DNA of 21,053 nt from Nitrospinota bacterium (GTDB taxonomy: Bacteria > UBA8248), in the NCBI GenBank assembly GCA_036231405.1, contig JAZAHK010000040.1, forward strand, positions 1 through 21,053. Reading direction: 5' to 3'. Position numbers and translations under genes: made by a program. Within the stretch, counting starts at the first letter, position 1, and each line of letters starts with the position of its first letter. Below the pieces are notes generated by a model, which was not told the origin of the DNA, made no database searches, and worked only from the letters and a program-made list of their open reading frames with translations. This document shows, piece after piece, positions 1-17,862 of this stretch.

Positions 1-454
1 TGCTCATAGGATAGGTTAAGGTCGCTTTTACTTTTTTGTCTGGCCCTATCAAAAATACTGATCGTGCCGTTGCATTGTCCGCGGCTGTTCTACCCTCAGA
101 AGAATTTCCATCCTCTGAAGGCAACATATCGAAAGCCTTGACTACTTCCAGTCCTGGGTCGCCTATTAGCGGATAACTAACAGGGTGCCCCTGAGAATTT
201 TCAATATCTTTGGACCATTTTTCGTGGTCAGAAACGCCATCAACACTGATTCCAAGTATTTTGCAATTCCTTTTTTCAAACTCATTTTTCAGTCCGGCCA
301 TAAAGCCCAGTTCTGTTGTACATACGGGGGTGAAATCTTTTGGATGAGAGAATAGAATTACCCATCCATCCCCAATCCATTCATGGAAATTGATTGTTCC
401 TTGTGTAGTTTCTGCAGTGAAATTTGGGGCTTCATCGTTAATTCTTAAAGTCAT
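1..454 (-). CDS. 1-Cys peroxiredoxin (Prx6 family), 5' part; continues beyond the window's left edge
   Basis: Not in the ORF track. Hand translation from ATG at 454-452 (RBS AGGAGGG at 467-461) gives MTLRINDEAPNFTAETTQGTINFHEWIGDGWVILFSHPKDFTPVCTTELG...ARSVFLIGPDKKVKATLTYPMS, open to position 1. FSHPxDFTPVCTTE is the Prx6 signature. Confidence 0.95.
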   Translation of the reverse strand, partial: MTLRINDEAPNFTAETTQGTINFHEWIGDGWVILFSHPKDFTPVCTTELGFMAGLKNEFEKRNCKILGISVDGVSDHEKWSKDIENSQGHPVSYPLIGDPGLEVVKAFDMLPSEDGNSSEGRTAADNATARSVFLIGPDKKVKATLTYPMS

Positions 455-554
455 TATTTTCCCTCCTAAAAAATTGGATTTCAAATTATTTTCAACTAAC
501 AGTAATTTTTTATTATTAGTTTTTTTTTAGGAATAATTCCATTAGACTGGTTTT

Positions 555-1991
555 ATGTCAATTGAACCCAAATCATATATTCATTCGGCGGCTAATATTC
601 TTGTTCATGTTCCTGAACTTGTGCGTTACGGGTCTAAGTGTCACAGTGAAATCGAAGAATTCGGCGAAGATTTTGTAGTTCAATTGAATCAACGCCTTCG
701 TAATTTTGATGAAGTTGTCTCCTATGCCCCGAATCAGACATTTATAGGTAATTTAAAACCAGAAGAACTTGATAAAAAATCGCAGCCTTGGTTCGAAAAT
801 CCTATTCATGGATCTTCTAAGGAAGGTTCCTTTGGCCAAATTCTAGATCAGTCATCTTTTTACATGCTTTTAAAATCTGCTGATGATTTTGATCTCTTTA
901 TGTTGGACTCTAATTTCATCGCTTCAAATTATAGTTGTGATGATACTACAAAAAAAATCTTCAATTCTAAGTTTTTAGAAAAAGGATCCGACATTGATGA
1001 AATTGGAAAGCAAACAAAATTGGAAAAAACTTTGGCTATTGAAAACAAGGGGAAACTTGTGGGATGTTTTCGTTCTGATCATGAAAAAGATGAGTCTTTA
1101 GATGCTAGAATTTTATTGGAAAATTTATCGGCTAAGGCTAGTGGTGCTTTTGCGTTGAATCGTCTTTTATCTCAGGAATCAATCGATCCATTATCAGTAG
1201 AATATATAATAAGTTGTTCAGAAGAGGCTATAGGGGACCGTTACAATCGTGGAGGAGGAAACCTCGCCAAAGCGATTGGAGAGATGGTTGGTTGTAGTAA
1301 TGCTGCTGCGATGGATGTAAAAGCATTTTGTGCTGCTCCTGTATATGCGCTCATTCATGCTGCTTCATTGATACAGTCAAAAGTTGTCAAAAATGTTGCT
1401 GTGGTTGGAGGTGGTTCTCTTGCAAAATTAGGGATGAAAGCACATTTTCATATAGAAAAACAAATGCCCATACTTGAAGATTTACTTGGTGGAGTTGCAT
1501 TCTTCCTATCCTCTGATGGCACAGAAGGTACTCCCTATGTAAATTTAGAGATTGTCGGGCATCATCGTATAGGCAGTGCTTCTTCTCCACAAGAGATGAT
1601 TGAATCACTGGTTTACAAACCTTTACACAAAGTAAATTTGACTGTTTTTGATATTGATAAATTCTGCGTGGAACTTCATAATCCTGAAATCACTGTTCCT
1701 GCTGGTGCTGGGAATGTTCCCTTGGTTAACTATAAAACTATAGCTGCTCTTGCAGTGATGAAAAACGAGTTGACAAAGGAATGCATTCAGGATTTCATTG
1801 TTGAAAAAGGCATGCCAGGATTTTCTCCTACTCAGGGGCATATTCCAGCGGGTGTTCCTTATCTAGGATACGCGCTCAACGCTTTAAGAGAAGGGTCTTT
1901 CAAGAGAACTATGGTTGTAGCGAAAGGCAGTTTGTTTCTTGGTCGAATGACGAGGAGTGCAGATGGAGTATCCGTGGTAGTGCAGGTATAG
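555..1991 (+). CDS. grdC: Glycine/sarcosine/betaine reductase component C subunit beta-like protein (FabH/thiolase fold)
   Basis: GrdC-type motifs YAPNQTFIGN, LENLSAKASG, CSEEAIGDRYNRGGGNLAKAIGE, DVKAFCAAP, AKLGM, ELHNPEIT.PAGAGNVP..NYKTIAALAV, GMPGFSPTQGHIP and KGSLFLGRMT. Adjacent to grdA/E/B. Confidence 0.93.
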   Translation: MSIEPKSYIHSAANILVHVPELVRYGSKCHSEIEEFGEDFVVQLNQRLRNFDEVVSYAPNQTFIGNLKPEELDKKSQPWFENPIHGSSKEGSFGQILDQSSFYMLLKSADDFDLFMLDSNFIASNYSCDDTTKKIFNSKFLEKGSDIDEIGKQTKLEKTLAIENKGKLVGCFRSDHEKDESLDARILLENLSAKASGAFALNRLLSQESIDPLSVEYIISCSEEAIGDRYNRGGGNLAKAIGEMVGCSNAAAMDVKAFCAAPVYALIHAASLIQSKVVKNVAVVGGGSLAKLGMKAHFHIEKQMPILEDLLGGVAFFLSSDGTEGTPYVNLEIVGHHRIGSASSPQEMIESLVYKPLHKVNLTVFDIDKFCVELHNPEITVPAGAGNVPLVNYKTIAALAVMKNELTKECIQDFIVEKGMPGFSPTQGHIPAGVPYLGYALNALREGSFKRTMVVAKGSLFLGRMTRSADGVSVVVQV

Positions 1992-2025
1992 ATTGTAAAC
2001 TTAAAATTAAAGAGGAGTGCTTGTT

Positions 2026-2478
2026 ATGGATGATCGGAAAGTCATTATCCTTGGAGAAAGAGATGGTATCCCAGGACCGACTATTGCCGAGTGTCTCGAG
2101 GCTGCAGGACGGGAAATTATTTTTCAGAAAACGGAATGTTTTGTTTGAACCTCTGCAGGTGCAATGGACCTGGACAACCAAGCGACCATCAAAAAGCTTT
2201 CTGAGGAATATGGTTCAGAAAATTTGATGGTAGTCTTAGGTATGCCAACTGATGGATTGATGATAGCAGTAGAGACCTTAACAAAAGGGGATCCAAGTTG
2301 GGCAGGACCATTAGCGGGGGTCTCGTTGGGACTTCCTGTCTACCATGTACTTGAAGAGGAAATCAGGGATTTGATTCCTATTGAAATGTATGAAGAAAAG
2401 CTAAAGATGATGGAAATAGTTCTAGATCTGGAAGAAATTGAGTCTAGTTTGTCACAGATGCGATCGGGCACTTCATAA
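2026..2478 (+). CDS. grdA: Reductase selenoprotein A (150 aa; Sec41 encoded by TGA 2146-2148)
   Basis: ATG 2026 follows RBS AGAGGAG and reads MDDRKVIILGERDGIPGPTIAECLEAAGREIIFQKTECFV-(TGA)-TSAGAMDLDNQ..., in frame with track ORF 2164..2478. CFVU is the GrdA CxxU motif. GDPSWAGPLAGVSLGLPVYH is also a GrdA hallmark. Confidence 0.95.
2149..2174 (+). promoter_or_regulatory. Candidate SECIS element of grdA
   Basis: Stem CAGGT (2156-2160)/ACCTG (2168-2172) with loop GCAATGG directly after the UGA. An alternative mini-fold is TGC-AGGT-GCA (2154-2163). The exact fold is uncertain. Confidence 0.5.
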
Positions 2479-2500
2479 AAAAATTTTGGAGAGTGAGATA

Positions 2501-3778
2501 ATGCGTTTAGAAATGGGTTTGTTCCCTGTCGATAATATTGTAGAAGGAAACGATTCTACTTTTTCTAATGGATTATTGACTCTTAATTTCGAACAACTTC
2601 GTGGAATGGTAATGGAAGAGGGGAAATTTGAGGATGTTAGTTTTCATATTGCTCTTCCCGGTGATTCTGTCAGAATCACCAATGTGTTAGATGCAGTTGA
2701 ACCAATTCATAAGATAAATGGAAATTCGTGCGAATTTCCTGGTTTCCTAGGGCCTGCAAGAACGGCGGGAGATGGAAAAACTCATAAACTCTCAGGGATG
2801 TGTGTATTAAGTTCGACGTATTTTTTGGGTCCTCAGACAGGTATAATGACGTGCCGTGAAGGCATCATTGATATGTCTGGCCCAGGGACCAAATTTTGTA
2901 CAAATTCGGATACTTTCAACCTTGTCATTAGATATATTCCACTTCCAAGCACGACCAATGTTGAACACGATGATGCCGTAAGACTTTCAACACTTCGTAT
3001 TTCTTCATGGCTTGGGAGTTTGACAAAAGAAATGACTCCAAAAGAAACAAAAATCTATGAACTTCTTGATGTAGATCCTTCTCTTCCAAAAGTGGTTTAT
3101 GTTGATCAGGTAATGCATCAAGCCCCTATGGTGCAGACCTTTATGTACGGAAAAGATTTGGGAGATTCTCTTCCCACACTCATACACCCGAACGAAATGC
3201 TTGATGGTGCTGTTGTTGGCGCAAATTATAAAACATCACAAAAAGTACCGACTTATCTCCATTGTAATAAACCGCTAATCCTCGAACTGTATAGGCGTCA
3301 TGGGATAGATTTAAATTTTGCGGGCATGATTCTTACTAGAGGACACAGAGATAATCAAGCTCTGAAAGAACGTTCTGCTCAATACGTTGCGAAACTTGCA
3401 AAAATTCTCCATGCGGATGGTGCTGTTTTGTCCTTTGAAGGAGGTGGGAATTCATCCGTTGATTACTGGCTAACTGTTCAAGCTCTTGAACAAATGGAGA
3501 TAACTGCGGTTCCGATTGTTTATGAAGTTGGACGGCCAGGAACAAGCGAATTCCCTCTTGTTTATCATGTTCCTGAGGCGAACTCTATTATCAGTAAAGG
3601 CGCTAATGGGGATAAGGTAGATGCTCCTGCAATGGAAAGAGTGATTGGGTCCAAAAAAATCTTTTTATATGGAGGACAAGAATTTAACGCCAGTGGAAAT
3701 TTGCAACTTACGAATTCTGATTACTATGCGACAGAATGGGCTTTAGATTTAAACGGTTTTGTTGGGAAGGATTATTAA
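2501..3778 (+). CDS. Reductase component B alpha/beta proprotein-like (GrdE/GrdG/GrdI family), 425 aa
   Basis: Start moved to ATG 2501 (RBS GGAGAG 2488-2493; MRLEMG N-terminus). Motifs PGDSVRITNVLDAVEP, FPGF, GDGKTHKL, EGIIDMSGPG, LPKVVYV, PTLIHPNEMLDGAVV, LYRRHGIDLNFAG, KERSA and ADGAVLSFEGGGN. Confidence 0.9.
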   Translation: MRLEMGLFPVDNIVEGNDSTFSNGLLTLNFEQLRGMVMEEGKFEDVSFHIALPGDSVRITNVLDAVEPIHKINGNSCEFPGFLGPARTAGDGKTHKLSGMCVLSSTYFLGPQTGIMTCREGIIDMSGPGTKFCTNSDTFNLVIRYIPLPSTTNVEHDDAVRLSTLRISSWLGSLTKEMTPKETKIYELLDVDPSLPKVVYVDQVMHQAPMVQTFMYGKDLGDSLPTLIHPNEMLDGAVVGANYKTSQKVPTYLHCNKPLILELYRRHGIDLNFAGMILTRGHRDNQALKERSAQYVAKLAKILHADGAVLSFEGGGNSSVDYWLTVQALEQMEITAVPIVYEVGRPGTSEFPLVYHVPEANSIISKGANGDKVDAPAMERVIGSKKIFLYGGQEFNASGNLQLTNSDYYATEWALDLNGFVGKDY

Positions 3779-3814
3779 TCCAAGTACAATTTCGATAATG
3801 GAGGTTAGTAGACT

Positions 3815-5131
3815 ATGAATGAGATTAAGATAGTTCATTTCCTTAATCAGTTTTTTGCAGGTTCTGGCGGAGAGAAAATGGCCGAAGAGCCTCTTAATTT
3901 CCATGATCAGGAAATTGGCCCAGGAGTTTTGTTAAATAAAATACTGGGAGCAAACGGAAAAGTTGTCGGAACTATCTCTTGTGGTGACAATTATTTTTTT
4001 AAGAATGAAAGCTCTGTATACGAGAAGATAAGCGAATATATTAAAAAAACTGCTCCAGATCTTTTGATTGCTGGACCTGCGTTCAATGCAGGTCGCTATG
4101 GTCTTGCCTGCGCGAACTTGTGTAAGGAAGTTTCCAAGCGGGGTTATTGTAAGGTAATTACCGGAATGTTTGAAGAGAATCCCGGTGTTGATGCTGGAAA
4201 GGGAAGTGTACTTATCATCCAAACTGGCCCATCTGTTGGAGATATGGAAAGTGCATTAGATAATATTTTGAGAATTGGATTAAAACTTGTTTCTGGTGAA
4301 AAAATTAATTCTGCCCAAGATGAAGGCTATTTTCCCACAGGTGTTAGAAATAACGTCCAACTTGACACTCCTGCTTCACCAAGAGCGGTTGACTTACTTC
4401 TAAAAAAAATAAAAGGCGATTCTTATGTGTCTGAACTTATTGTCCCAGTTTTGGACAAGGTGGATCCTCCTGAACCCATTTCTGATTTAAAAACTGCGGT
4501 GATTGCTATTGCATCAGAAGGTGGAATGGTGCCTCCTGATAATCCTCATAAAATACCAGGTTCTAGGACTAATAAATGGGGGGTGTATTCCTTTTTAGGG
4601 AGAAATGAGCTTGAGAAAGATTCTTTTATTTCCATTCACGGTGGTTTTAATACAGTTTTTGTGAACGAGGATCCGGATCGTATTATTCCTCTGGATGCAC
4701 TGCGTGTTTTCGAAGGACGTGGAGAAATTGGGAAAGTGTATGAGGATTTCCTAAGTACATGTGGGAATGGAGGTGCGTTTGGTCACATGCAAGAAATTGG
4801 TCAAGCTTGGGCTAAAGAACTGAAAAAAGGGGGAGTCACTGGAGTAATACTACCTGCAACCTGAGGAACAGGTACACGCAGCGGTGCTGCGTTAGCGAAA
4901 GAACTCGAAAGAGAAAAAATTCCTACTGCTCTTATTACTTGTCTTCCAGATGTTGCTAAAGATATAGGTGCGAACCGTATAGTAAATAATAAAGCTGGAC
5001 ACTTCCATCATCCCTTTGGTGAGCCAAGTATGCCAAGAAAGGCAGAAGAAGCGTGGCGTTTGGGTGCGGTGAAAAGTGCTCTTGAAGCTTTACAAACTTC
5101 TGTCGAGGTTCCTACTGTTTTTGAATACTAG
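3815..5131 (+). CDS. Reductase selenoprotein B (GrdB/GrdF/GrdH family), 438 aa; Sec350 encoded by TGA 4862-4864
   Basis: Motifs IVHFLNQFFAGSGGE, CGDNYF, AGPAFNAGRYGLAC, GMFEENPG, HGGF and EDPDRIIPLD. Reading through the TGA gives GTGTRSGAALAKELEREKIPTALITCLPDVAKDIGANRIV...HPFGEP...ALEALQTSVEVPTVFEY to TAG 5129-5131, the typical GrdB C-terminal domain. Confidence 0.93.
4876..4892 (+). promoter_or_regulatory. Candidate SECIS element of the grdB-like gene
   Basis: Perfect 7-bp stem ACGCAGC (4876-4882)/GCTGCGT (4886-4892) with a GGT apical loop, starting 11 nt after the UGA. Spacing and G/U loop resemble the E. coli fdhF SECIS. Confidence 0.75.
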
Positions 5132-5204
5132 TGATTTTCCATTTAATATTGATGTATAGTAATTTTTATATAAAACATTCAGAGTTTGTTTTTGGGAGAC
5201 TTTA

Positions 5205-6158
5205 ATGGTTCTAGATTATTTAGAATTAAGAAGAAGAACTCAGGATAGGGATAAGTCACTTCGGGAGAAAGTGATGAACTTAGAAGAGGCGGCGAATCTT
5301 GTGTCTGACGGTGATCATATTGCACTGGGAGGTTCGACAGCATCTCGAACATCTTTTGCGCTTCTTTGGTCTCTGATAAGGGCCAAGAAAAAATTTTTAA
5401 CCTTTTCCAGAAGTATAGTTTCTACCGAAGGAGACTTGATCTTTGCCTCTGGAATTGGAAAAGAAATCCAAACTAGTTGGTTTAGCCAAGGGATTGTCTG
5501 GGGTGTATCAAGAGTAATGCGACATTTTACTGAAAATAATTTGGCGACTTACAAAGAATGGAGTCATATGTCTATGGGTCTGCGATATAGAGCAGGAGCT
5601 ATGGGCGTGCCATTCATGCCAATGAGATCTATGATGGGTTCTGATGTCGCGGGTAGATTGGAAAATTTAAAAGAAATGATTTGCCCTTTTACGGGAGAGA
5701 AAATTTTATTAGTTCCTGCATTAAATCCGGATGTTGCTCTTATCCATGTGCAACGTTGTGATTCATTTGGAAATGCACAATTAGACGGATTGACTTTTAT
5801 GGATATAGATATGGCAATGGCTGCAAACAGGGTGATTTTAACTACTGAAAGGATTATTTCTAATGATCAGATAAGAAGATCTCCCGATTTGACAAAAATA
5901 CCTTTTTTTACAGTAGATGGTGTTGTAGAGGTTCCATACGGGTGTGTTCCCCATGAGTGTTACGGAGTCTATGAACCTTTTTTCCCCCATATGGATTATT
6001 ATGCTGAACTTACGAGGAAAGATCCTATGAAAGGAGTAAAAGAATATTTAGACCGGTTTTATTATTCTCCAAAAAACTGGAACGAGTATCTTGCTTTAAT
6101 CGGAATAGACGAAATTTTCGGTGCAACTCAAAGAGGGAGAAGTATTTATGACGATTAA
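5205..6158 (+). CDS. Class I CoA-transferase subunit A (glutaconate CoA-transferase GctA/CatI-like)
   Basis: KVMNLEEAANLVSDGDHIALGG, YRAGAMGVPFMP.RS..GSD, CPFTGEKILLVPALNPDVALIHVQRCD.FGN, AANRVILTTERI. RBS GGGAG. Confidence 0.9.
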   Translation: MVLDYLELRRRTQDRDKSLREKVMNLEEAANLVSDGDHIALGGSTASRTSFALLWSLIRAKKKFLTFSRSIVSTEGDLIFASGIGKEIQTSWFSQGIVWGVSRVMRHFTENNLATYKEWSHMSMGLRYRAGAMGVPFMPMRSMMGSDVAGRLENLKEMICPFTGEKILLVPALNPDVALIHVQRCDSFGNAQLDGLTFMDIDMAMAANRVILTTERIISNDQIRRSPDLTKIPFFTVDGVVEVPYGCVPHECYGVYEPFFPHMDYYAELTRKDPMKGVKEYLDRFYYSPKNWNEYLALIGIDEIFGATQRGRSIYDD

Positions 6159-6918
6159 AGCTGATTCTTTTACCTCTTCAGAACTGCTCTGTATAATGAG
6201 TGCACGTGCATTAAAAGATGGACAAGTAGTTTTTGCGGGTGTGGGGATTCCTCTATTAGCAGCTACTCTTGCACAAAGGCTACACGCACCTGGACTAACT
6301 ATTCTTTTTGAAGGAGGAACTATTGGTCCACATATAGTTCCCGGAGAATTACCACCGACGACGAATGAGCAACGTTGTACTAGAAAAGCTAATATGTTGG
6401 TAAGTATTACTGAAGTTCTTCTTTTGCTACAACGAGGTTATGTTGATATTGGTTTTATGGGTGGTGCTCAAATAGATAAATTTGGGAATTTGAATAGTTC
6501 ATTTATTGGAAATGTTGAAAACCCTTCAGTAAGATTGCCGGGAACAGGTGGCGGAAATGATATTGCTAGCCTCTCCAAAATGATAGTTGCTATGCCACAA
6601 GAGAAACGCCGTTTTGTTGATAAAGTAGATTTTATAACAAGCCCAGGATACCTTAACGGTGGCAGTACCCGAAAAGATTCTGGTTTAATTTCTGGAGGAA
6701 TGTACAGAATTGTGACTGATCTAGCCATTTTAGGTTTTGATGAAAATGGAAGGATGCAAGTGGAAGCTCTTCATCCTGGAATAACTACAGACCAGGTGAA
6801 AGAAAATACAGGTTTTGAACTCAAAATTGACGAAAACATATCAAGAACGGATCCTCCCACAGAAGGGGAATTAAGTGCACTTCGAATTTTAGATCCTGAC
6901 AAAGTTTATATTGCTTAA
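6148..6918 (+). CDS. Class I CoA-transferase subunit B (GctB/CatJ-like)
   Basis: Likely start ATG 6148 (RBS GAGGGAG; 11-nt overlap with subunit A). Motifs VFAGVGIP, ILFEGG (Glu55, the catalytic Glu position), GFMGGAQIDKFGNLNS, RLPGTGGGNDIAS and FVDKVDFITSPG. Confidence 0.9.
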   Translation: MTIKADSFTSSELLCIMSARALKDGQVVFAGVGIPLLAATLAQRLHAPGLTILFEGGTIGPHIVPGELPPTTNEQRCTRKANMLVSITEVLLLLQRGYVDIGFMGGAQIDKFGNLNSSFIGNVENPSVRLPGTGGGNDIASLSKMIVAMPQEKRRFVDKVDFITSPGYLNGGSTRKDSGLISGGMYRIVTDLAILGFDENGRMQVEALHPGITTDQVKENTGFELKIDENISRTDPPTEGELSALRILDPDKVYIA

Positions 6919-6920
6919 AA

Positions 6921-8204
6921 ATGGGAATTACATTGGGAAAAAAAGAAAAAGATTTTCTTTTAAAAGAAATAGATAGTCGTTCGGACGAAATTGTGAATTT
7001 ACTTTCTAATTTGGTGAGGATTCCCAGTGTTACTGGCGAAGAGGGCGAAATCCAAAGATATATAGCGAAGTTTCTAAATGAAATAGGGCTTGAGGTAGAC
7101 GTTTGGGAATCAGACTGGGAAGAATTAAAAAAACATCCTGAGTATGTTTCTGTCACCAGGGGCTATGAAGGAAGGCCAAATGTTGTCGCAGTTTTAAAAG
7201 GTACGGGTGGGGGAAAGTCTCTGCTTCTTAATGGTCATACAGATACTGTTCCTAATGGTCCTTTAGATTCATGGCAATTTGCTCCACTTTCTGCAGAGAT
7301 TTCTAATGGTCGCCTTTATGGACGAGGTTCTTCTGATATGAAGAGCGGAGTTGCAGCAATTATTATGGCAGTTAAAAGTATTGTGGAATCTGGAAGTAAA
7401 TTGAAAGGCGATGTCATTTTGGACTTTGTAGTTGATGAAGAATTAAGTGGTCATGGGACATTAGATACGATTCTGAGAGGTTATACAGCTGATGCTGGAA
7501 TTTGTTGTGAGACTAGTGGAAATGCAATCCAACCTGCATGTATCGGTAGAATTTGGTTTGAGATTTTAGTTCGAGGCAAATCTGCTGGAATTCAAAGAAG
7601 ATACGAAGGGGTAAATGCTATTGACTTAGGTTATAAAATAGTCAATGCAGTTTCAGAACTTGAACAAAAGAGATTGAAGACGGTTGAACACCCACTTTAC
7701 CCAAAAATAATTGATGCTATTCCATGTATGATTGGTTCTATGGAAGCTGGAAGTTTCCCAAGTGCATTCCCGGATACTTGCATTCTAAAAGGAAGCTTAG
7801 CTACAGTTCCAGGAGAGGATCACGATGCCGCAAAACAAAGTCTGCTTGACGAAGTTCGATTTGCCGCGCTTGAAGATCCATGGATGAAAGAAAATCCTCC
7901 AGAGGTAAAATTTACAGGATATTATGCAGAATCCGCAGAGGTTGATGTTGAACATCCGATAGTAAAAACAGTTGCTAATTGTTATCAAGAAGTTTCTGGT
8001 AGAGTTCCAGAAATTTCAGGACGGCAAGGAGCTGCGGATACTAGGTTTCTCAATGGTTTTGCAAATATTCCAACAGTAATCTTTGGTCCAGGTCCTACTA
8101 CACAAATGCATGCGAATAACGAATGGGTTGCTGTGGATGATGTAGTAGATGCAACTAAAACTCTTGCTCTTTCGATGCTTGATTGGTGTGAGTTGTCCAC
8201 ATGA
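6921..8204 (+). CDS. M20 family metallo-deacylase (ArgE/DapE-like)
   Basis: LLLNGHTDTV, LYGRGSSDMKSG, VVDEE, CCET, and FGPG...MHANNE metal-ligand motifs. Confidence 0.9.
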   Translation: MGITLGKKEKDFLLKEIDSRSDEIVNLLSNLVRIPSVTGEEGEIQRYIAKFLNEIGLEVDVWESDWEELKKHPEYVSVTRGYEGRPNVVAVLKGTGGGKSLLLNGHTDTVPNGPLDSWQFAPLSAEISNGRLYGRGSSDMKSGVAAIIMAVKSIVESGSKLKGDVILDFVVDEELSGHGTLDTILRGYTADAGICCETSGNAIQPACIGRIWFEILVRGKSAGIQRRYEGVNAIDLGYKIVNAVSELEQKRLKTVEHPLYPKIIDAIPCMIGSMEAGSFPSAFPDTCILKGSLATVPGEDHDAAKQSLLDEVRFAALEDPWMKENPPEVKFTGYYAESAEVDVEHPIVKTVANCYQEVSGRVPEISGRQGAADTRFLNGFANIPTVIFGPGPTTQMHANNEWVAVDDVVDATKTLALSMLDWCELST

Positions 8205-8217
8205 TTTGGAGAAATTT

Positions 8218-9168
8218 ATGACGAAGAAAAACGTAAAATTTGGTGTGGCTATGCGAAATTTTACTGCTTATCCGGAACTTCCTGATCCAAAAAAATTATT
8301 AGATTACGCTGTCAGAATGGAAGAGTTAGATTTTGAATCTTTATGGGTATGGGATCATATTCTATTAGGCGTAGAACCTCATTTTCCAATCATAGATTCT
8401 TTAACCATGTTGACTGCAGTTGCTGCGAGAACATCAAAAATTAAACTGGGAACAGGAGTTTTGGTTTTACCTCTTCGGAATCCACTTGTATTAGCAAAGC
8501 AGTTGTCAAGTATTGATCAAATTTCTGAAGGTCGTTTAATCGTTGGAATGGCTTCTGGTTGGTATAAGCGTGAATTTGATGCTGTAGGAGTTCCTTTTGA
8601 AAAAAGAGGAAATATAATGGATGAGAGTATTGAGATAATTACTCGCCTTTGGACTGAGGATATGGTTCTAGGAGAATATAGTGACTATAATTTAAGAAAT
8701 TCTGTGATGTTTCCAAAACCAGTTCAAACTCCCAGGCCACAAATTCTAATTGGAGGTTATGTAGATAGAGTCCTAAAACGTGCAGGAGAAAAAGGAGATG
8801 GTTGGCTCACTTATTTTTATACTCCAGAAAGTTTTTCGAAATCTTGGGAAAAAGTTTGCGAGTATGCCGAGTATGTAGGCAGAGATCCTGCTATTTTAGA
8901 AAGTACAAATCAACTTCCTATAGCGGTTGGAGATTTAAGGTCAGAAATTGAAGGACCAATGCAAGAATGGTTGAGAACTGAGTGGGACTATGCGGATTGG
9001 AGTGATTCTACAGCTGAAAGTGCAATTATTGGGAATGTAGATGAATGTGTCGAACAACTTCAAGAGCATATTCAAACGGGGTTAGATCGTATTATTTTTG
9101 TCCCATACAAATATGACATAAAACAAATTGAAGTAATTTCTAAAGAAATTATTCCTCGTTTGAGATAA
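8218..9168 (+). CDS. LLM-class (luciferase-like) flavin/F420-dependent oxidoreductase
   Basis: Likely start ATG 8218 (RBS GGAGA 8208-8212). Motifs FESLWVWDH, AARTSKIKLGTGVLVLPLRNP..LAKQ, GRLIVG...GW...EF and PKPVQTPRPQILIGG. Confidence 0.9.
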   Translation: MTKKNVKFGVAMRNFTAYPELPDPKKLLDYAVRMEELDFESLWVWDHILLGVEPHFPIIDSLTMLTAVAARTSKIKLGTGVLVLPLRNPLVLAKQLSSIDQISEGRLIVGMASGWYKREFDAVGVPFEKRGNIMDESIEIITRLWTEDMVLGEYSDYNLRNSVMFPKPVQTPRPQILIGGYVDRVLKRAGEKGDGWLTYFYTPESFSKSWEKVCEYAEYVGRDPAILESTNQLPIAVGDLRSEIEGPMQEWLRTEWDYADWSDSTAESAIIGNVDECVEQLQEHIQTGLDRIIFVPYKYDIKQIEVISKEIIPRLR

Positions 9169-9205
9169 ATATAATATTTAGTTTATTTTCTGATTGGAGT
9201 ATGAA

Positions 9206-10261
9206 TTGGCTATAAGAAAAAGTTCGTGGGATAGGTTTAAATTTTATTCGCAAAATATGTTTGAAGCTATCGGAGGAACTCCTTTAGTTAAACTCAACAG
9301 TGTAGGTTCTGAACTTTCTTCTAACATCTTTGTTAAAGTTGAATGGTACTCACCAACAGGAAGCCTAAAAGATCGTATCTATTACAATATGATTAGTAAG
9401 GCTGAGGAGAGGGGAGAACTAAAAAAAGGAATGACTGTTTTGGAATGTTCTACGGGAAATGCTGGAATCGCTTGTTCCTTTGTTTCAACAGTAAAGGGTT
9501 ATCCTTGTACAGTCGTCATGCCAGAAGGAATGAGTGTTGAGAGGAAAAAAATAATGCTTGCGTATGGCAGTGAACTTGTTTTTACCCCTGGTGGAGAGAG
9601 CGATGTAGATCTGGCACTTGAGAAACTCGAAGAAATTCGTTCTCAAGACCCAGGAAAGTATTGGGTTCCTGCTCAATTTGATAATTTAGATAATAATGAA
9701 GCACACTATTTAACTACTGGGCCTGAGATATGGGAACAACTAGACGAGAAAGTTGACGCAGTTATTGGTTCGCAGGGAACGGGAGGATGGATTAGCGGAA
9801 TTGGCAGGTTTCTAATGGGAAAAAATGAAAATATTGAAATATTTGCAGTTGAGCCTTCAGAATGTCCCCTGTTAAGCAAGAGAGAATGGGGTTCCCATGG
9901 TATTGAAGGTATTGGGGATGGATTTGTGCCTAGGGCTTTAGATTTATCAATTTTAAAAGGTATCGTGACCACTTCAACTAAAGAATCATTGGAAATGGCT
10001 AAAAGACTTGCTAGAGAAGAAGGAATTTTCTGTGGAATTTCTTCAGGATGTAATGTCATTGCCGCAATTAAACTTGCTCGTTCAAGGCCTCATCTTAAAA
10101 ATATTGTTACTAATATATGTGATACCGGACAAAGATACTTTACAACAGAACTTTGTGGGGAAGAAAAAAACATTGAAATTCCTGATAGGGCACACAGTAT
10201 AGACGAATATAGTAAGTCCGAACTCGATAAATTTTCTTCGCATTGGGAAATAATAAATTAA
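9206..10261 (+). CDS. PLP-dependent cysteine synthase/cystathionine beta-synthase family protein
   Basis: IGGTPLVKL, SPTGSLKDR (PLP Lys), QFDN..N..AHY.TTGPEI, GTGG, HGIEGIG and EEGIFCGISSG. Start uncertain: TTG 9206 follows GGAG 9196-9199, while the track uses TTG 9194. Confidence 0.88.
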   Translation: MAIRKSSWDRFKFYSQNMFEAIGGTPLVKLNSVGSELSSNIFVKVEWYSPTGSLKDRIYYNMISKAEERGELKKGMTVLECSTGNAGIACSFVSTVKGYPCTVVMPEGMSVERKKIMLAYGSELVFTPGGESDVDLALEKLEEIRSQDPGKYWVPAQFDNLDNNEAHYLTTGPEIWEQLDEKVDAVIGSQGTGGWISGIGRFLMGKNENIEIFAVEPSECPLLSKREWGSHGIEGIGDGFVPRALDLSILKGIVTTSTKESLEMAKRLAREEGIFCGISSGCNVIAAIKLARSRPHLKNIVTNICDTGQRYFTTELCGEEKNIEIPDRAHSIDEYSKSELDKFSSHWEIIN

Positions 10262-10400
10262 GATTTCCTTTTTAGGATTTGTTGTTGGAATTAAGTCTAA
10301 AATTTCAAGAGAATTTTTTTCTTTTCGACATTCTTTGTGTCTTCTTGATGAGTTGCCGTATTAGTTGAAAATAAAATGAACAGTGAAAACGGGGACAAAA

Positions 10401-12671
10401 ATGAACTCAAAGATAATAGGGAAACCAGTTCCTATCATTGATGCGGTTGAGAAGGTGTGTGGTGATACTTCATACATAGATGATTTTAGGTTGAAAAATT
10501 TGTTGATTGGTTCAGCTTTGAGGAGTCCTCATCCTCATGCTAGAATCTTAAAAATTGACACTTCAGATGCGGAGAAATTGTATGGAGTAGTTGCTGTCCT
10601 CTCCAAAAATAATACCACTAATAAAAAATTCGGAATTAATCTAAAGGATGAAACGGCGTTCTGTTGCGACAAATCTAGGTATATAGGAGATGAAATAGCT
10701 GCGGTTGCAGCCGTTGATAAAGAAACTGCACAAGAAGCGATTTCTCTAATAAAAGTCGATTATGAGATTCTTCCGGCCGTTTTTGATCCATTTTCTGCAT
10801 TGGAAAAGAATTCACCTCGTTTACATAAATCTAATTCTCGAAACCTAGCAAATGCATTTCATATAAAAAGAGGTAATGTAGATGATGCTTTTTCAAACGC
10901 AGATGAAATTTTCCATGGAGATTTCCATACTCATTTAGCACATCAGGCTTATATAGAACCAACAGGTTGTGTGGCCGATTTTCATTCTAACGGAAAAATA
11001 TCGATATGGGGATGTTTGCAATCTGCATTTTTGATTAGAACCTTTATGCTTTCACCTGTTATGAAAATGAGTGCAGATAATTTTCGTGTTATACAAACTA
11101 AACCAGGAGGTGCTTTTGGTGGGAAACTAGACGTAAAAGCGGCATTAATGGCTGCAATGCTTTCTAGGGAATCGGGTAAGCCTGTTAAATTTCTTCTGAG
11201 TTTAGAAGAAGATTTAACTTGTATGCGACCAAGAATGCCCGTTCATATTTCCTTAGAATCTGCTTGGAAAAAAGATGGCACTCTTTTAGGAAAGCGTGTA
11301 AAAATTATTGCAGATAATGGTGCATATAGTTCACTTTCTCCTGCAATTATGAGTTCAATAGCATTAAGAACTGATAATTTGTACAAAACGCCCGCGTCGG
11401 AGATTGAAGGAAAACTCGTTTATACAAACCTTATTCCATCTGGCCAAATGAGAGGTTTTGGTAATGTTCAAGCAACGTACGCATGGGAGAGTCATCTTGA
11501 CGACGTTGCGAATAGTTTAAATATTGATCCTGCTGATTTGCGAATCAAAAATTACACAGAAAAAGGGGATGTCTCTCTCCATGGTTGGAAAATAGCAAGT
11601 TGTGCAGTAGAAGATGCTACGAAATATGTTGTTGATAAAATTAATTGGAAATCAAAGCGATTGAAAGCAGGGGAAGGAAGAGGCGTTGGGCTTGCTAGTT
11701 GTATTCATGTTTCAGGAAATAAGGGTTTTTCTGTAGAACTTGGTCCAGATGATACAGATCCTTCAAGTTGTGAAATTAGAATAGATAAAGATGGAAAAGT
11801 AACGATCTGGTCAGGAGAATCCGACTTAGGGCAAGGTGCTACCAGTGTTATGGCTTTTATCGCTTCTGAGGTGTTGAATATCCCTGTTGAAAATTTCAAT
11901 GTTCCTCCTACAGACACAGGTTATATGCCTTTTGGTATGGGTGCATTTGCCAGTAGGACAACTTTAATTGGAGGAAACGCAGTCAAGATTGCCGCGGAGG
12001 ATATTAAAAAAAACCTATTGGACGCTGCTTCAGAAATTTTAGAAGTCCCTGCGGGTCAACTTCAGATTTCCGGTGACGAAATTCAAGTTGCCTCGCTCCC
12101 TAATCGTAAAATATCTCTTGGCGAGTTAGTGAAGGAGAAAGGTGACATTATACAAGGTCACGGAACGTGGCTGGCTGGCGGGGAAGTTCTCGATAAGGAC
12201 AAGTATGGGAATCCATCTACCACATATTCCTTTAGTACCCATGGGGCGGAAGTCTTTGTCGATATGGAAACTGGAGAAGTCAAAGTTTTGAATATTTGTT
12301 GCGGTCACGATCCAGGTAGGGTTATTAATCGTCTCGGTGCAGAGGGCCAGGTAGAAGGTGGAACAGTTCAAGGGATGAGTTACGCAATAATGGAAAATTT
12401 AAACCAAATAGAAGGTTCTATTCAGGGAAACAATTTCCATAATTATCTGATCGCAACCTCGATGGATATTCCTGATATTCAACATGATTTCTTTGAATCT
12501 ATGGATCCCTATGGCCCATACGGTGCGAAGGGACTAGCTGAAGTAGCTATCAATCCCATTACAGCTGCTATTTGTAATGCTATATATAATGCAACTGGAG
12601 GTGCTAGGATAAGAAAATTGCCAATAACACCGGAGCATGTACTTGAGGCTATAGAAGGTATTGAAAGCTAA
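10401..12671 (+). CDS. Xanthine dehydrogenase family molybdopterin-binding (large) subunit
   Basis: Likely start ATG 10401. Motifs LRSPHPHARI, AHQAYIEP, GGAFGGK, QMRGFG, DLGQG, AFASRTT, EGQVEGG..QG and GPYGAKGLAE (catalytic Glu). Confidence 0.92.
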   Translation: MNSKIIGKPVPIIDAVEKVCGDTSYIDDFRLKNLLIGSALRSPHPHARILKIDTSDAEKLYGVVAVLSKNNTTNKKFGINLKDETAFCCDKSRYIGDEIAAVAAVDKETAQEAISLIKVDYEILPAVFDPFSALEKNSPRLHKSNSRNLANAFHIKRGNVDDAFSNADEIFHGDFHTHLAHQAYIEPTGCVADFHSNGKISIWGCLQSAFLIRTFMLSPVMKMSADNFRVIQTKPGGAFGGKLDVKAALMAAMLSRESGKPVKFLLSLEEDLTCMRPRMPVHISLESAWKKDGTLLGKRVKIIADNGAYSSLSPAIMSSIALRTDNLYKTPASEIEGKLVYTNLIPSGQMRGFGNVQATYAWESHLDDVANSLNIDPADLRIKNYTEKGDVSLHGWKIASCAVEDATKYVVDKINWKSKRLKAGEGRGVGLASCIHVSGNKGFSVELGPDDTDPSSCEIRIDKDGKVTIWSGESDLGQGATSVMAFIASEVLNIPVENFNVPPTDTGYMPFGMGAFASRTTLIGGNAVKIAAEDIKKNLLDAASEILEVPAGQLQISGDEIQVASLPNRKISLGELVKEKGDIIQGHGTWLAGGEVLDKDKYGNPSTTYSFSTHGAEVFVDMETGEVKVLNICCGHDPGRVINRLGAEGQVEGGTVQGMSYAIMENLNQIEGSIQGNNFHNYLIATSMDIPDIQHDFFESMDPYGPYGAKGLAEVAINPITAAICNAIYNATGGARIRKLPITPEHVLEAIEGIES

Positions 12672-12714
12672 ATATTTTACGTTTTGTAATTCTTTAATCA
12701 TGAAGGGTTAGATT

Positions 12715-13671
12715 ATGCTGAATTTTCATTTTGGATATCTACTTCCTACTAGGGGCGTAGTCGTATCTGCTAAAGGAGAACCTCCTGATACCACTCCTAT
12801 TATTACTCTTGCACAGAAAGCCGAAAATCTTGATTTTGACTCTGTATGGATAGGAGATAGTGTTCTAGCAAAGCCCAGGATGGAAAGTTTTACAACATGG
12901 TCTTCAGTTCTTGCATCTACAAAAAAAGTCCAAGTTGGTACAGCTGTTCTGCTTGCTGCCTTGAGGCATCCTATTATGTTAACCCAGTCATTGACTACTC
13001 TTGACTGTATGTTCCCTGGGAGAGTACTCCCTGGGTTAGGAGTTGGGAGAGAGGAATTAAAGGAAGAATTTGAAACTCTAGGGGTAAAAATATCTGAGAG
13101 GGCAAAACGTTTCACGGAAACTATTGAGATTTTGAAATTATTAATGAGCGAAAGAAATTGTAGTTTCTCTGGGAAATACTTTTCTTTTGAAGACATAGAT
13201 TTAGAGCCTCGACCTTTTAGCAAAGGAGGACCTCCGATATGGATTGCTAGCAACTATGTCCAATCTGGATTACGACGCGTTGCGCGTTTGGCTGACGGAT
13301 GGATAACTAATTCGATCACTCCTGAACTTTATCGGAAATGTTGGGATACTATTCTTGCTTATGGAGAAGATTGCGGGAGAAAGAGTCTAGAAAAGATTCC
13401 TCAATGTCTTTATGTAACGATGAATATTAATCCAAATGGAGAAAAGGCAAAAAAAGAGGCTGGGGATTTCCTTTCGAAATATTACCATAAAACTTTTGAA
13501 GATATTCAAAAACAACTTCTTGTTATTGTCGGGGATGGTGATCAAGTTGAAGAAAAAATTCGTTCTTATAGTGATATTGGGGCATCTACCTTTATTATTC
13601 GTTTTGCTGGAGGTAGTCAAGTAGAACAGATGGAGAATCTTGTCTCAGAACTCATGCCTCGCTTTAGATAA
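12715..13671 (+). CDS. LLM-class flavin-dependent oxidoreductase (second, divergent paralog)
   Basis: FDSVWIGDS, VGTAVLLAALRHP, GLGVG, EPRPFSKGGPPIWIA and RVARLADGW. Confidence 0.88.
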   Translation: MLNFHFGYLLPTRGVVVSAKGEPPDTTPIITLAQKAENLDFDSVWIGDSVLAKPRMESFTTWSSVLASTKKVQVGTAVLLAALRHPIMLTQSLTTLDCMFPGRVLPGLGVGREELKEEFETLGVKISERAKRFTETIEILKLLMSERNCSFSGKYFSFEDIDLEPRPFSKGGPPIWIASNYVQSGLRRVARLADGWITNSITPELYRKCWDTILAYGEDCGRKSLEKIPQCLYVTMNINPNGEKAKKEAGDFLSKYYHKTFEDIQKQLLVIVGDGDQVEEKIRSYSDIGASTFIIRFAGGSQVEQMENLVSELMPRFR

Positions 13672-13688
13672 GGATAAGAGGAAAAATT

Positions 13689-14873
13689 ATGGTCATTGAA
13701 ATTGGAACGGGTGTTTCAAAGGAAGAAGTAAATTCTAGATTGCAAAAGACTCGAATTTTAATGGAGAAAGAAAAAATAGAGTTTTTGATTGTCATTGGCC
13801 GTTCCTTTTACGACAGAATGGGAAGTCTTGCGTATCTCACAAATCACTTTCCCCCGTTCCCTCCTGGTGCTTTTAGTCCAACAGTACGCGGTATGGGGCA
13901 TGGTGTCTTATTGTTACCCTTAGATTCTGATCCTTTACTTTTAGTTGATCATAGAAATTTTCGAGAAGATATGGTTCACATTGATAACGTTCGAGTAGAG
14001 ACAAATTTCTCTAAAATGATTATTGATTATTTAGATAAAAGTCTTCAAAAAAAAACTGGAAGAGTTGGGATTGCAGGTGAAGATATAATGCCTGCAACCA
14101 TGTATATTGATCTAAAGGAAAATTTAGATAACGTTAATTTTGTTAACGGAAATAACATTGTAGAACAATTGAGATCCGAAAAGAGTCCAGTGGAAATAAA
14201 GTATCTTAGAAAAGCCGCAAAAATAACCGAATTTGCGTATGAAAGTATTCTTGCCGCAATCAAACCTGGAGTTAGGGAATGTGATCTTTGTGCGGAGGGA
14301 CATGCTGCAGGAATGAAAGCCGGTGCAGATTTTGTCCGTTATGTAAGAGTTCACAGTGGTCCTTGGTCAAGTTGGGGTTCTCGCTGGCCACAAGCAACAC
14401 AGAGAAAAATAGAGCCTGGTGATTTAATACGTTTTGATTATGTTGGCGCCATCGAAGGATATGGATTTGACGTTAATAGGACTTTTGTTGTGCCGGGAAA
14501 GAAGATTGATGCGAAAATTTTGAGAATGCTTGAATTAACCGTTGAAGTTACACGAAGTGCAGTTTCTGCAGTTAAACCAGGAGTTGCAGTTTCCGATATA
14601 CATAAGAAAGCTAGTGAAAAACTTGATGAAGAGATTCCCGAAGGTAGCAAATATCTCTTCCCAATGGCTGGTCATGGTATAGGGTTGGAGACAGTAGAAA
14701 ATCCTATAATTCGTCCGGATAATGAAGAGAAATTAAAGAAAAACATGGTGCTTTGTATAGAACCTCAATTTGTAATTCCTGAAATCGGTGGAACGAATAT
14801 AGAACAGATGCTACTAATAACAGATACTGGCAGTGAAATCCTTACGAAAACCCCTGAAAGAACTTGGGAATAA
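13689..14873 (+). CDS. M24 family (Xaa-Pro peptidase/creatinase-fold) metallohydrolase
   Basis: Creatinase-type N-domain, LRSEKSPVEI..LRKAA, and metal ligands in RFDYVG...YGFDVNRT, GHGIGL, CIEP and NIEQ. Confidence 0.88.
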   Translation: MVIEIGTGVSKEEVNSRLQKTRILMEKEKIEFLIVIGRSFYDRMGSLAYLTNHFPPFPPGAFSPTVRGMGHGVLLLPLDSDPLLLVDHRNFREDMVHIDNVRVETNFSKMIIDYLDKSLQKKTGRVGIAGEDIMPATMYIDLKENLDNVNFVNGNNIVEQLRSEKSPVEIKYLRKAAKITEFAYESILAAIKPGVRECDLCAEGHAAGMKAGADFVRYVRVHSGPWSSWGSRWPQATQRKIEPGDLIRFDYVGAIEGYGFDVNRTFVVPGKKIDAKILRMLELTVEVTRSAVSAVKPGVAVSDIHKKASEKLDEEIPEGSKYLFPMAGHGIGLETVENPIIRPDNEEKLKKNMVLCIEPQFVIPEIGGTNIEQMLLITDTGSEILTKTPERTWE

Positions 14874-14912
14874 TTATGAAATTCAAAGTAAAAAAAAGTT
14901 TATGAGGTTCTT

Positions 14913-16760: not shown

Positions 16761-16876
16761 TTTTTTTTCAAAGTTGAAAATCATATCTTCTTATTTTATG
16801 ATTGTTATATCGAAATAATTAACTAGTTCTTATTTTCCTTATAAGTTTCTTTAATTCTACTTTTGGGAGGGGTGTA

Positions 16877-17854
16877 ATGTTTCAGAACTTGAAGAGAATG
16901 TTTGCATTTGTAGTAGTATTTTTATTCATTGCCTGTTCACATGTAAGTGCCGCTGACAGACTTAAGATGGGAAGTTGGAAAAAAGGAAGTGGATGGCATG
17001 TATATACAGCAACTATGGCTAATATTGTGAATAACGCAAAAACAGGGGTTTCGATAGATCCACTTTCTAAAGGTGGTGGAGTAGGGAATCCTATCAACGT
17101 GGGAACAGGGAAATTTGATTTAGCTCTTACTTTTAGTGTTGCTGCTAGTTGGGCTGTTCAAGGAAAAGTTGCATACAAGAAAGCCTTTACTAATTTGAGA
17201 GGTTTAGTTGGTGGTCTTGATCAATACTATCTTGGAATCGTTACAACCAACAAAAAAGTATCTAGTATCAACGATCTGAAAACAGTGCCTGTGAATTACA
17301 TAACTGTTCCACGTGGAGGTTTAGGACAGTGGGCTACTCGTGCAATGCTAGGAGCACATGGAATAACATACGGGCATATAAAGAAGAATGGAGGGTCTGT
17401 TACTCATACTGGTTTTGGTGCAATTAAGAGTAGAATGGCAGATGGTCAGGCAAATATGTTAAGTCACACTGTAAATGCGGGACATCCTGCACTAACATCA
17501 ATAGCGATTAAAAAGAAACTTAAATTCTTAGGGGTTGAAGATAAGTATAGAAATAAGTTGCTGGGTATTGGGTTTTTGAAAGCTGACTTGCCAGCGAATA
17601 CTTTTCCTGGTCAAACTTCATCCAAGAAGACGTTTGGGTTTACTACTTGTGTTATTGCATCAACTAAAATGTCAAATGATGTAGCATACAAAATCGTTAA
17701 ATCATTAATCAGTAATATCAAAGATCTTCGAGCTGGACATAAAGGTCTGCGTAATTTCAAACCAGAGAAAACTGGATGGAAAGTTTCGCAAATGGGTGCT
17801 CCTGTCCATGCAGGTGCCGCAAGATATTATAAAGAGAGAGGTTGGTTGAAATAA
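16877..17854 (+). CDS. TAXI-family TRAP solute-binding protein
   Basis: N-terminal signal peptide (…SHVSA/A), SKGGGVGN, LPANTFPGQ, VAYKIVK and C-terminal PVHAGAARYYKERG. Strong RBS GGGAGGGG. Adjacent to the fused permease. Confidence 0.92.
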   Translation: MFQNLKRMFAFVVVFLFIACSHVSAADRLKMGSWKKGSGWHVYTATMANIVNNAKTGVSIDPLSKGGGVGNPINVGTGKFDLALTFSVAASWAVQGKVAYKKAFTNLRGLVGGLDQYYLGIVTTNKKVSSINDLKTVPVNYITVPRGGLGQWATRAMLGAHGITYGHIKKNGGSVTHTGFGAIKSRMADGQANMLSHTVNAGHPALTSIAIKKKLKFLGVEDKYRNKLLGIGFLKADLPANTFPGQTSSKKTFGFTTCVIASTKMSNDVAYKIVKSLISNIKDLRAGHKGLRNFKPEKTGWKVSQMGAPVHAGAARYYKERGWLK

Positions 17855-17862
17855 GGTTTATA

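Follow-up and report, generated by a model that had tools for sequence, protein, structure and literature searches.

A GrdD-less, four-gene module of the glycine-reductase family with two selenoproteins in Nitrospinaceae

Introduction

Glycine reductase is the textbook selenoenzyme which conserves energy via acetyl phosphate, the last step being assigned to GrdD, and the characterised betaine reductase works with GrdC and GrdD. Nitrospinaceae are described as marine nitrite oxidisers. Here, we describe a reductase gene module of this type from a member of that family, in which grdC, grdA, a grdE-like and a grdB-like gene are present and grdD is absent. The module lies on contig JAZAHK010000040.1 of the Nitrospinota bacterium assembly GCA_036231405.1. 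The window analysed is this entire contig of 21,053 bases (C40), and the source genome comprises 2.09 Mb in 48 contigs with a completeness of 91.9%. Both grdA and the grdB-like gene contain a selenocysteine (Sec) codon; the products of the grdE-like and grdB-like genes are termed GrdE' and GrdB' below.

According to the accessible portions of two articles, the clostridial glycine reductase is composed of GrdA, the pair GrdB and GrdE, the pair GrdC and GrdD, and TrxA/TrxB (PMC9908766, PMC13188914), and the motif of GrdB is given as UxxCxxC in one of these texts (PMC13188914). For fluoroacetate reductase, the available excerpt of PMC10838667 describes a FarB without CxxC and a FarE which has no processing Cys residues and is called 'similar to' GrdI. 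Excerpts of selenoproteome papers list GrdA and GrdB as selenoproteins in Syntrophus aciditrophicus (PMC1794560) and in marine metagenomes, and no remark on GrdD is contained in these excerpts. The available part of a 2026 preprint places glycine-reductase-family genes in a riboflavin-degradation neighbourhood, i.e. the family is turning up in new roles. In the literature outside subscription journals, no report was found of Grd genes in Nitrospinaceae or of a system which lacks GrdD.

GrdD was not found in genomes with this type of GrdC

Open reading frames (ORFs) on the + strand were called with TGA read as Sec, and families were assigned by comparing profile hidden Markov model (HMM) scores with the model cut-offs. 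The order proposed in the initial annotation, grdC-grdA(Sec)-grdE-like-grdB-like(Sec) followed by CoA-transferase subunits A and B, was recovered with all six genes in place. Its statement that no grdD, trx, trxB or sel gene is encoded in these 21 kb holds for the window's 17 large ORFs (no separate GrdX model was applied). From the architecture of Grd-type reductases, the window thus contains a selenoprotein A with CxxU, the GrdB-family selenoprotein beside its PF09338 partner (adjacent genes, 2501-5131) and GrdC, and it does not contain GrdD.

GrdD was searched with the model NF040747 (cut-off 350 bits) in the source genome and in a family set of 42 Nitrospinaceae genomes, which are species representatives and of which several are closed. 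The top score in the source genome was 17.8 bits, and the matching protein is PlsX-like (PF02504). None of the 42 family genomes, closed ones included, exceeded the cut-off (top score 35 bits); the same search recovered GrdD with 358-541 bits in all three control genomes which encode a canonical GrdB. The absence of grdD therefore extends from the window to the genome and the lineage. The possibility that grdD is merely hidden by a contig break or by incompleteness of the genome was rejected, since closed, module-bearing genomes of the family also have no grdD. The 6 kb further upstream in relatives encode PrpD, acyl-CoA enzymes, an alcohol dehydrogenase, a cupin and a peroxiredoxin, and no grdD.

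For comparison of GrdC types, the GrdD-less set was taken as the best 80 of 503 relatives in a search seeded with GrdD-less GrdCs, and the canonical set as the 80 best loci in a search seeded with canonical GrdCs, nearly all of them from Bacillota (Clostridia and relatives). Loci of the GrdD-less set belong to Nitrospinota, Desulfobacterota, Syntrophia (including a complete Syntrophus buswellii genome), Actinomycetota, Chloroflexota, Burkholderiales, Thermotogota, Acetothermia, Binatia and others. GrdD adjoins GrdC in 75/76 canonical loci with enough downstream sequence, whereas it does so in 0/72 loci of the window's type. A tree of 164 GrdCs contains a branch (support 1.0) which separates 82 GrdD-less from 80 GrdD-linked sequences; two further rows, from short contigs, group with the GrdD-linked side. 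Whole-genome searches gave no GrdD over cut-off in 41 genomes outside Nitrospinota with window-type GrdC (top score 32 bits), nor was GrdD found in two Chloroflexota genomes with non-canonical modules. One of the latter (G045, locus L024) is flagged as unpublished, and the statements on Chloroflexota rest partly on it. In total, this GrdC clade was encountered together with GrdD in 0/85 genomes searched (42 Nitrospinaceae, 2 Chloroflexota and 41 of other phyla). The initial annotation had proposed a distinct class. This was right, yet the class is not special to the window: a GrdD-less GrdC clade exists in many phyla, and also together with canonical-looking protein B pairs.

Residues specific for the clade include HVPDLVRYGSK near the N-terminus, GDRY(N/Q)RGGGN in place of GDMNQRGGGN, and AKGSLF in place of GKGSLF. 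Cys259 and His429 are invariant in 52/52 aligned GrdCs. The predicted structure of the window's GrdC (predicted local distance difference test, pLDDT, 91.4; predicted template modelling score, pTM, 0.92) has a thiolase/FabH-type fold, and the top Foldseek matches of this model were PqsBC, SpoVAD, FabH (including an acetyl-CoA complex) and OleA. A sequence search against solved structures returned only weak FabH matches (expect value, E, 0.004).

The only recurrent neighbours in other phyla are thioredoxin and amino-acid ABC transporter parts. A thioredoxin gene is located between grdB and grdC in 16/51 GrdD-less loci outside Nitrospinota (L105-L158), which supports a thioredoxin-driven mechanism. 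Parts of a branched-chain-amino-acid-type ABC transporter are found near 4 to 7 of these loci.

Protein B differs from the characterised reductases

GrdB' and GrdE' remained below the cut-offs of all models for characterised systems. GrdB' reached 375 bits with the GrdB model (TIGR01917, cut-off 602), while canonical controls scored 682-699 bits; 436 bits were obtained with the GrdF model (cut-off 800) and 382 bits with the GrdH model (cut-off 775). For GrdE', the values were 249 bits with the GrdG model (cut-off 780) and 129 bits with the FarE model (cut-off 675). The Sec site of the Nitrospinaceae GrdB' reads PATUGTGTRSG versus TSTUGTCTRCG in canonical GrdB; UxxCxxC is thus replaced by UxxGxxS, and both Cys residues are lost. 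The self-cleavage site of GrdE' reads GANYKTSQK versus the canonical SGNCVSACDK, with Tyr in the column of the pyruvoyl Cys in 7/7 aligned Nitrospinaceae sequences.

GrdB and GrdF motif regular expressions were taken from the Methods of PMC9751293, the part of this article which was used. Both motifs fail in 7/7 Nitrospinaceae sequences (the window and six others). Among the controls, one canonical GrdB passes the GrdB motif fully and two pass 5 of its 6 parts; four sequences pass the GrdF motif. A FastTree of 74 GrdB-family sequences contained monophyletic groups for Nitrospinaceae (support 1.0), Far (1.0), GrdH-like proteins (1.0), the GrdF-motif group (0.96) and canonical GrdB (0.98), and the Nitrospinaceae clade lies outside the four other groups. 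Together with a second paralogue from Nitrospina, a Burkholderiales protein and one protein from a metagenome, it makes up an 11-tip group (support 0.955), all members of which lack both Cys residues. Loss of this Cys is frequent in the GrdE family: Cys occupies the pyruvoyl column in 8 and Tyr in 68 of 142 length-filtered representatives nearest the query; this sample, derived from the 150 best of 1,034 matches, is enriched for the query's relatives. The ESM Atlas returned only PF09338 clusters with uninformative automatic names for GrdE', and no match for GrdB' was found in the sequence search against solved structures.

HMM cut-offs, published motifs and the GrdB tree hence agree with the initial placement of the B and E proteins outside any characterised glycine, sarcosine or betaine clade. 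By model, motif and clade, the Nitrospinaceae GrdE'/GrdB' pair is not a glycine, sarcosine, betaine or fluoroacetate reductase as far as sequences tell. The loss of the pyruvoyl Cys and of CxxC also fits the suggestion, made at the outset, of a non-glycine substrate of the type X-CH2-COO-. The missing carbonyl cofactor would argue against primary and secondary amines and favours an X-CH2-COO- compound with a good leaving group.

A betaine-type reductase akin to GrdH/GrdI is the alternative which survives best. It would convert betaine or a marine onium-acetate (e.g. dimethylsulfonioacetate) to an amine or sulfide and an acetyl unit. The processing Cys is missing in GrdE' and also in GrdI, according to the excerpt of PMC10838667, as well as in the GrdI-like sequences aligned here, which carry Phe in this column. 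In addition, the Ala preceding Sec (ATUG) is common to GrdH-like proteins and GrdB', and betaine is a common marine osmolyte according to the available part of PMC9321204. However, GrdH-like proteins score 717-738 bits on the GrdH model, whose cut-off GrdB' misses by far, they keep UxxCxxC, and they form a separate, fully supported clade. No betaine transporter or methylamine gene was present beside the module in any locus examined, and in North Pacific metatranscriptomes no obvious taxa transcribing grdI homologues are reported in the same part of PMC9321204. We consider a betaine-type reductase unlikely.

Conservation of the module and selenium machinery

A GrdB' homologue with 56-100% identity is encoded in 30/42 family genomes (source included), each gene having one in-frame TGA; the module was not found in 12/42. 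Loci of ~20 kb each were fetched for 14 of the 29 other positive genomes, whereby long or closed contigs were preferred. Complete grdC-grdA-grdE-grdB in that order was present in 13/14 of these, and the 14th is truncated by the contig end. Both TGA codons are the sole in-frame TGA in every family homologue listed, and the single TGA of each selenoprotein gene is at the same position across genera which share only 56-72% identity. All four ORFs of the module are intact and the catalytic-site motifs are conserved.

The genome-wide search for selenium machinery which the initial annotation had suggested was positive: selA, selB, selD and tRNA-Sec are all present in the source genome, outside the window. 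The selD gene (G000:C3:154791-155753) itself carries one in-frame TGA and probably encodes a selenoprotein. Thioredoxin-like ORFs with one TGA were seen in some g3 genomes.

The flanks of the module vary among Nitrospinaceae genera and contain a short-chain dehydrogenase/reductase, a multicopper oxidase, MnmA, AlgH, or mobile PIN or methylase inserts. In several Nitrospina genomes, inserts are found between grdE and grdB (L045:7489-8711; L047:10941-12238) and split the operon by ~2 kb. Each insert is either a DNA-methylase-like pair of genes or a PIN-domain gene preceded by a partner ORF which matches no known family.

Further modules were encountered in the family. Three near-identical Nitrospina genomes contain a second complete GrdD-less module in the order grdA-grdC-grdE-grdB (L076:5834-10380 = G027:C1; L078; L127), with A and C genes of its own and a GrdB which is 42% identical to GrdB' of the window. 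Its flanks encode an IclR regulator, an ABC transporter, a TctCBA carboxylate transporter and a TauE/SafE-family exporter. For this paralogue only, and as a single independent observation, such a setting hints at sulfoacetate or a different dianionic carboxymethyl compound as the substrate. Genomes of genus g9 contain a third grdE-grdB pair (L077:8798-11394, L079:1553-4182), which is more distant and has neither grdA nor grdC of its own; its GrdB is 36-37% identical, has the motif UGTSTRSG and, in the tree, groups with proteins from Chloroflexota.

Fate of the acetyl group

Acetate kinase (AckA) and phosphotransacetylase (Pta) were each over cut-off in 0/42 Nitrospinaceae genomes; of 14 known genomes used as controls, 9 had AckA and 7 had Pta over cut-off. 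The AMP-forming acetyl-CoA synthetase (Acs) is present (1018 bits). Without AckA and Pta, acetyl phosphate has no consumer in the family and is an unlikely product. Release of the acetyl group to CoA, or hydrolysis followed by activation through Acs, would be more likely in Nitrospinaceae than release as acetyl phosphate. An acyl hand-off from GrdC to CoA rather than to phosphate, as initially suggested, is plausible given the missing AckA and Pta and the FabH-like fold of the GrdC model.

Feature list and downstream island

The features of the window are given in Table 1. An ORF extends over 2438-3778 for the grdE-like gene, but homologues align from the ATG at 2501, so the shorter extent is likelier. 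The contig's left end cuts the window inside the peroxiredoxin gene. The full-length homologue in L015 contains PF00578 and PF10417 (1-Cys peroxiredoxin C-terminal domain). This neighbour is retained in the same-genus loci L013-L015 and is not adjacent to grdC in other genera. Rfam returned zero matches over positions 1-7000 of the window at E up to 1. Mapping of four marine or seawater DNA runs to the window gave short, low-depth contigs only, with no joints among the covered parts.

Table 1. Coordinates of the grd module, its candidate Sec insertion sequence (SECIS) elements and neighbouring genes in the window.
Feature	Position	Strand	Evidence and remarks
1-Cys peroxiredoxin gene, truncated by contig end, divergent from grdC	2-484	-	NF009668 127.5 bits, below cut-off 211, on cut ORF
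grdC, thiolase/FabH-fold 'protein C beta' subunit	555-1991	+	NF040746 595 bits (cut-off 450); also PF19364, PF08545
grdA, selenoprotein A	2017-2478	+	Sec codon TGA 2146-2148, motif CFVU; PF04723 203 bits; NF040748 204 bits (cut-off 130)
Hairpin 3' of grdA TGA, candidate SECIS element	2154-2174 (approximate)	+	Fold of 60 nt from 2146, -9.4 kcal/mol
grdE-like gene, protein B subunit	2501-3778	+	PF09338 360 bits; no pyruvoyl-forming Cys
grdB-like gene, selenoprotein B	3815-5131	+	Sec codon TGA 4862-4864; PF07355 404 bits; TIGR01918 416 bits (cut-off 65)
Hairpin 3' of grdB TGA, candidate SECIS element	4872-4896 (approximate)	+	Fold of 60 nt from 4862, -15.1 kcal/mol, 7-bp GC-rich stem
CoA-transferase subunit A	5205-6158	+	PF01144, glutaconate-CoA-transferase family
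CoA-transferase subunit B	6121-6918	+	PF01144, glutaconate-CoA-transferase family

Downstream of the module, the CoA-transferase genes open an island (5205-20984) which encodes the GctAB-like CoA-transferase, an M20 deacylase, two LLM oxidoreductases, a CysK-like pyridoxal phosphate enzyme, an Xdh-type molybdenum subunit without adjacent small subunits, an M24 hydrolase, a TRAP-TAXI transporter, a UbiD decarboxylase and an amidohydrolase. About 14.9 kb of it, running from 5205 up to where the TRAP permease gene begins, are retained in L015, whose fetched sequence stops at that point.

In the initial annotation, the CoA-transferase was regarded as a partner of the reductase which recycles the thioester or activates a Grd substrate. 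It lies on the same strand after grdB in the window and in L015, the window's spacer of 73 nt contains no terminator-like site, and read-through transcription from grdB into the CoA-transferase genes is possible in the window strain as judged from this spacer. One metagenome contig spans the junction of grdB and the CoA-transferase (run X1, record 6, 4955-5650), although it may derive from the window's own sample, and in one deltaproteobacterial locus (L114) CoA-transferase homologues occur ~3 kb from grdA. The neighbourhood survey, however, revealed no conserved linkage, an outcome which the initial annotation had named beforehand as one that would refute its proposal. Within the ~20 kb fetched, a CoA-transferase homologue was beside grd in 0/14 loci of other genera. 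Among 26 Nitrospinota-type loci retrieved independently via GrdC, only one besides the window has it, and this is the same-genus locus L015. Of the other loci of this genus, L013 stops at grdB, and L014 has no CoA-transferase; there, an amidohydrolase gene follows grdB directly, and its product is 67% identical to that of the window's last gene. Little space separates the CoA-transferase genes from the M20, LLM, CysK-like and Xdh-like genes which follow, and they are gained and lost together with these. Both subunits contain PF01144 (E 5e-24 and 3e-29), are related to GctA and GctB and conform to the class I glutaconate-CoA-transferase type, of which the nearest solved structure is glutaconate CoA-transferase 1POI (E 2.2e-38), an enzyme acting on dicarboxylic acids; the two subunits are not borne out as members of the Grd module. 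Absence from most loci and coming and going with the whole island argue against a functional partnership, which we therefore hold to be very unlikely. The CoA-transferase is most likely a mere neighbour and, judged from the gene neighbourhoods, would belong to a separate, variable catabolic island.

Discussion

On balance, we lean towards the view that grdC-grdA-grdE'-grdB' is an operon complete in itself, whose four genes encode a thioredoxin-driven reductase with two selenoproteins. This reductase would belong to a GrdC-only variant of the glycine-reductase family which is widespread and uncharacterised. A plausible course of the reaction can be outlined as follows. Protein B (GrdE' and GrdB') would bind a carboxymethyl compound X-CH2-COO- without a pyruvoyl carbonyl for Schiff base formation. 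Since GrdE' has no such carbonyl, X should be a leaving group which needs no activation of this kind, and not the amino group of glycine; candidates would be a quaternary ammonium, a sulfonium, a halide or sulfite. X would be displaced by Sec350 of GrdB', and the carboxymethyl group would move on to Sec44 of GrdA. Cys259 of GrdC would then receive the acetyl thioester, leaving GrdA oxidised, and TrxB together with thioredoxin would re-reduce GrdA. In a lineage without GrdD, acetate kinase and phosphotransacetylase, the most likely exit of the acetyl group from GrdC is transfer to CoA, or hydrolysis and subsequent activation by Acs, and not release as acetyl phosphate. The module would thus serve assimilation or detoxification, not substrate-level phosphorylation.

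Going further, GrdC without GrdD may represent a second, phylogenetically separate 'protein C', which releases acetyl-CoA (or acetate) uncoupled from ATP, with the Nitrospinaceae pair cleaving a non-amine marine carboxymethyl compound such as a haloacetate, sulfoacetate or an onium-acetate like betaine or dimethylsulfonioacetate. This joint proposal is put forward as possible rather than probable. If true, Grd-type selenium chemistry could be of use to aerobes and microaerobes, either in assimilation or in detoxification.

Several observations weigh against these interpretations. Each of the two GrdC sets consists of the 80 best matches to its own query, and clade intermediates lie outside the sample. 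GrdC of the window passes as a normal equivalog, keeps the core motifs of GrdD-linked GrdCs and has no sign of CoA use in its sequence. PlsX, the nearest relative of GrdD, occurs in these genomes and could be a stand-in for it, and in the loci examined no conserved neighbour was found which would point to the substrate or take the place of GrdD. The canonical GrdE Cys and UxxCxxC are retained in many GrdD-less modules outside Nitrospinaceae with the order grdE-grdB-grdC-grdA; the lack of GrdD hence belongs to the GrdC clade and not to the unusual protein B. AckA is over cut-off in 18 and Pta in 5 of the 41 GrdD-less genomes of other phyla. Given these enzymes in some of the genomes and the canonical B and E proteins there, a GrdC-only constitution by itself excludes neither acetyl phosphate nor glycine. 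Finally, of the redox partners for which the initial annotation had suggested a search, TrxB was recovered in the source genome (360 bits, cut-off 343), whereas a classical thioredoxin was not found in this 91.9%-complete genome using TIGR01068, PF00085, tblastn and an active-site motif scan; neither trx nor trxB is part of the operon. The sole thioredoxin-type match is a TlpA-like WCPPC protein on C48. Thioredoxin is present in 5/5 relatives checked, and the gene of the source strain is probably in the missing 8% of the genome.

Part of this evidence bears on an ordinary glycine reductase, in which the acetyl-phosphate step is performed by housekeeping PlsX or by GrdC itself and the differences in B and E are lineage drift. 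GrdC and GrdA above their equivalog cut-offs, the PlsX-like genes and the canonical-looking GrdE and GrdB in other GrdD-less modules speak for it. The consistent Tyr in place of the pyruvoyl Cys and the failure of the GrdB and GrdF motifs in the Nitrospinaceae sequences contradict it, as does the family-wide lack of a consumer of acetyl phosphate, and we assign it slightly less weight still than a partnership with the CoA-transferase. A decaying, functionless relic, for which the genomes without the module and the mobile genes (PIN toxin or methylase) between grdE and grdB might be quoted, is scarcely credible in view of four intact ORFs, conserved catalytic motifs and one conserved TGA per selenoprotein gene across divergent genera.

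Returning to the favoured four-gene, thioredoxin-driven reductase, a whole GrdC clade works without GrdD, and Nitrospinaceae have no enzyme to use acetyl phosphate; thus, both the final chemistry of the pathway and its physiological role must differ from the textbook. A conserved two-selenoprotein module of the 'anaerobic fermentation' type is unexpected in bacteria described as nitrite oxidisers and points to an unrecognised organic substrate or toxin.

Comparison with known systems

The clostridial glycine reductase and the module of the window have the families A, B, E and C in common, as well as Sec in GrdA (CxxU) and in GrdB, a thiolase-fold GrdC with a conserved Cys and a thioredoxin system in the lineage. 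In contrast, GrdD, the pyruvoyl Cys, CxxC after Sec and AckA/Pta are absent in the window's lineage, and the operon has the order C-A-E-B without trx or grdX genes.

The FarB/FarE pair of the fluoroacetate reductase of Cloacibacillus (NF053623), as described in the excerpt of PMC10838667, has the same two Cys losses, and no Schiff-base chemistry is expected for it. Its substrate is an X-CH2-COO- compound with a good leaving group, and a similar type of substrate may apply to the pair of the window. The FarE model is missed by a wide margin, as given above, FarB is only 32-36% identical, and Far forms a separate clade; FarB loci examined have UGTSSRGG or UGTSSRCG at the Sec site. In the same excerpt, genes for a transporter and a radical-SAM protein are part of the far operon, and GrdA, GrdC and GrdD are supplied by the glycine reductase of the host, whereas the operon of the window encodes its own A and C, and no antiporter of the major facilitator superfamily or radical-SAM family was found among the window's ORFs.

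Betaine reductase GrdH/GrdI resembles the module in that the partner of the selenoprotein would be no proprotein (no cleavage-site Cys) and, for the module as proposed, in a substrate incapable of forming a Schiff base. The differences are the retained UxxCxxC and separate clade of GrdH-like proteins and the low score of GrdB' on their model.

FabH, PqsBC and OleA have the same fold as GrdC (Foldseek E 1.7e-11 to 1e-9; template modelling score 0.5-0.6, target-normalised), and an active-site Cys carrying acyl groups is common to all of them. GrdC differs by an extra N-terminal region of ~180 residues and by an identity of only 12-19%; no condensation is expected, and the fold match is not taken to indicate CoA binding.

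Uncharacterised grdE-grdB-grdC-grdA modules without GrdD occur in Syntrophus, Smithella, Syntrophorhabdus, Thermotogota, Actinomycetota, Chloroflexota and Burkholderiales; they and the module of the window share the GrdC clade, the content of four genes and the absence of GrdD. Most of them differ from the window's module by the canonical GrdE Cys and UxxCxxC and by the gene order, and some by the thioredoxin gene inside the cluster. Among them, cultured Syntrophus (S. buswellii) combines a GrdC of this type with canonical, glycine-type B and E proteins and has no GrdD.

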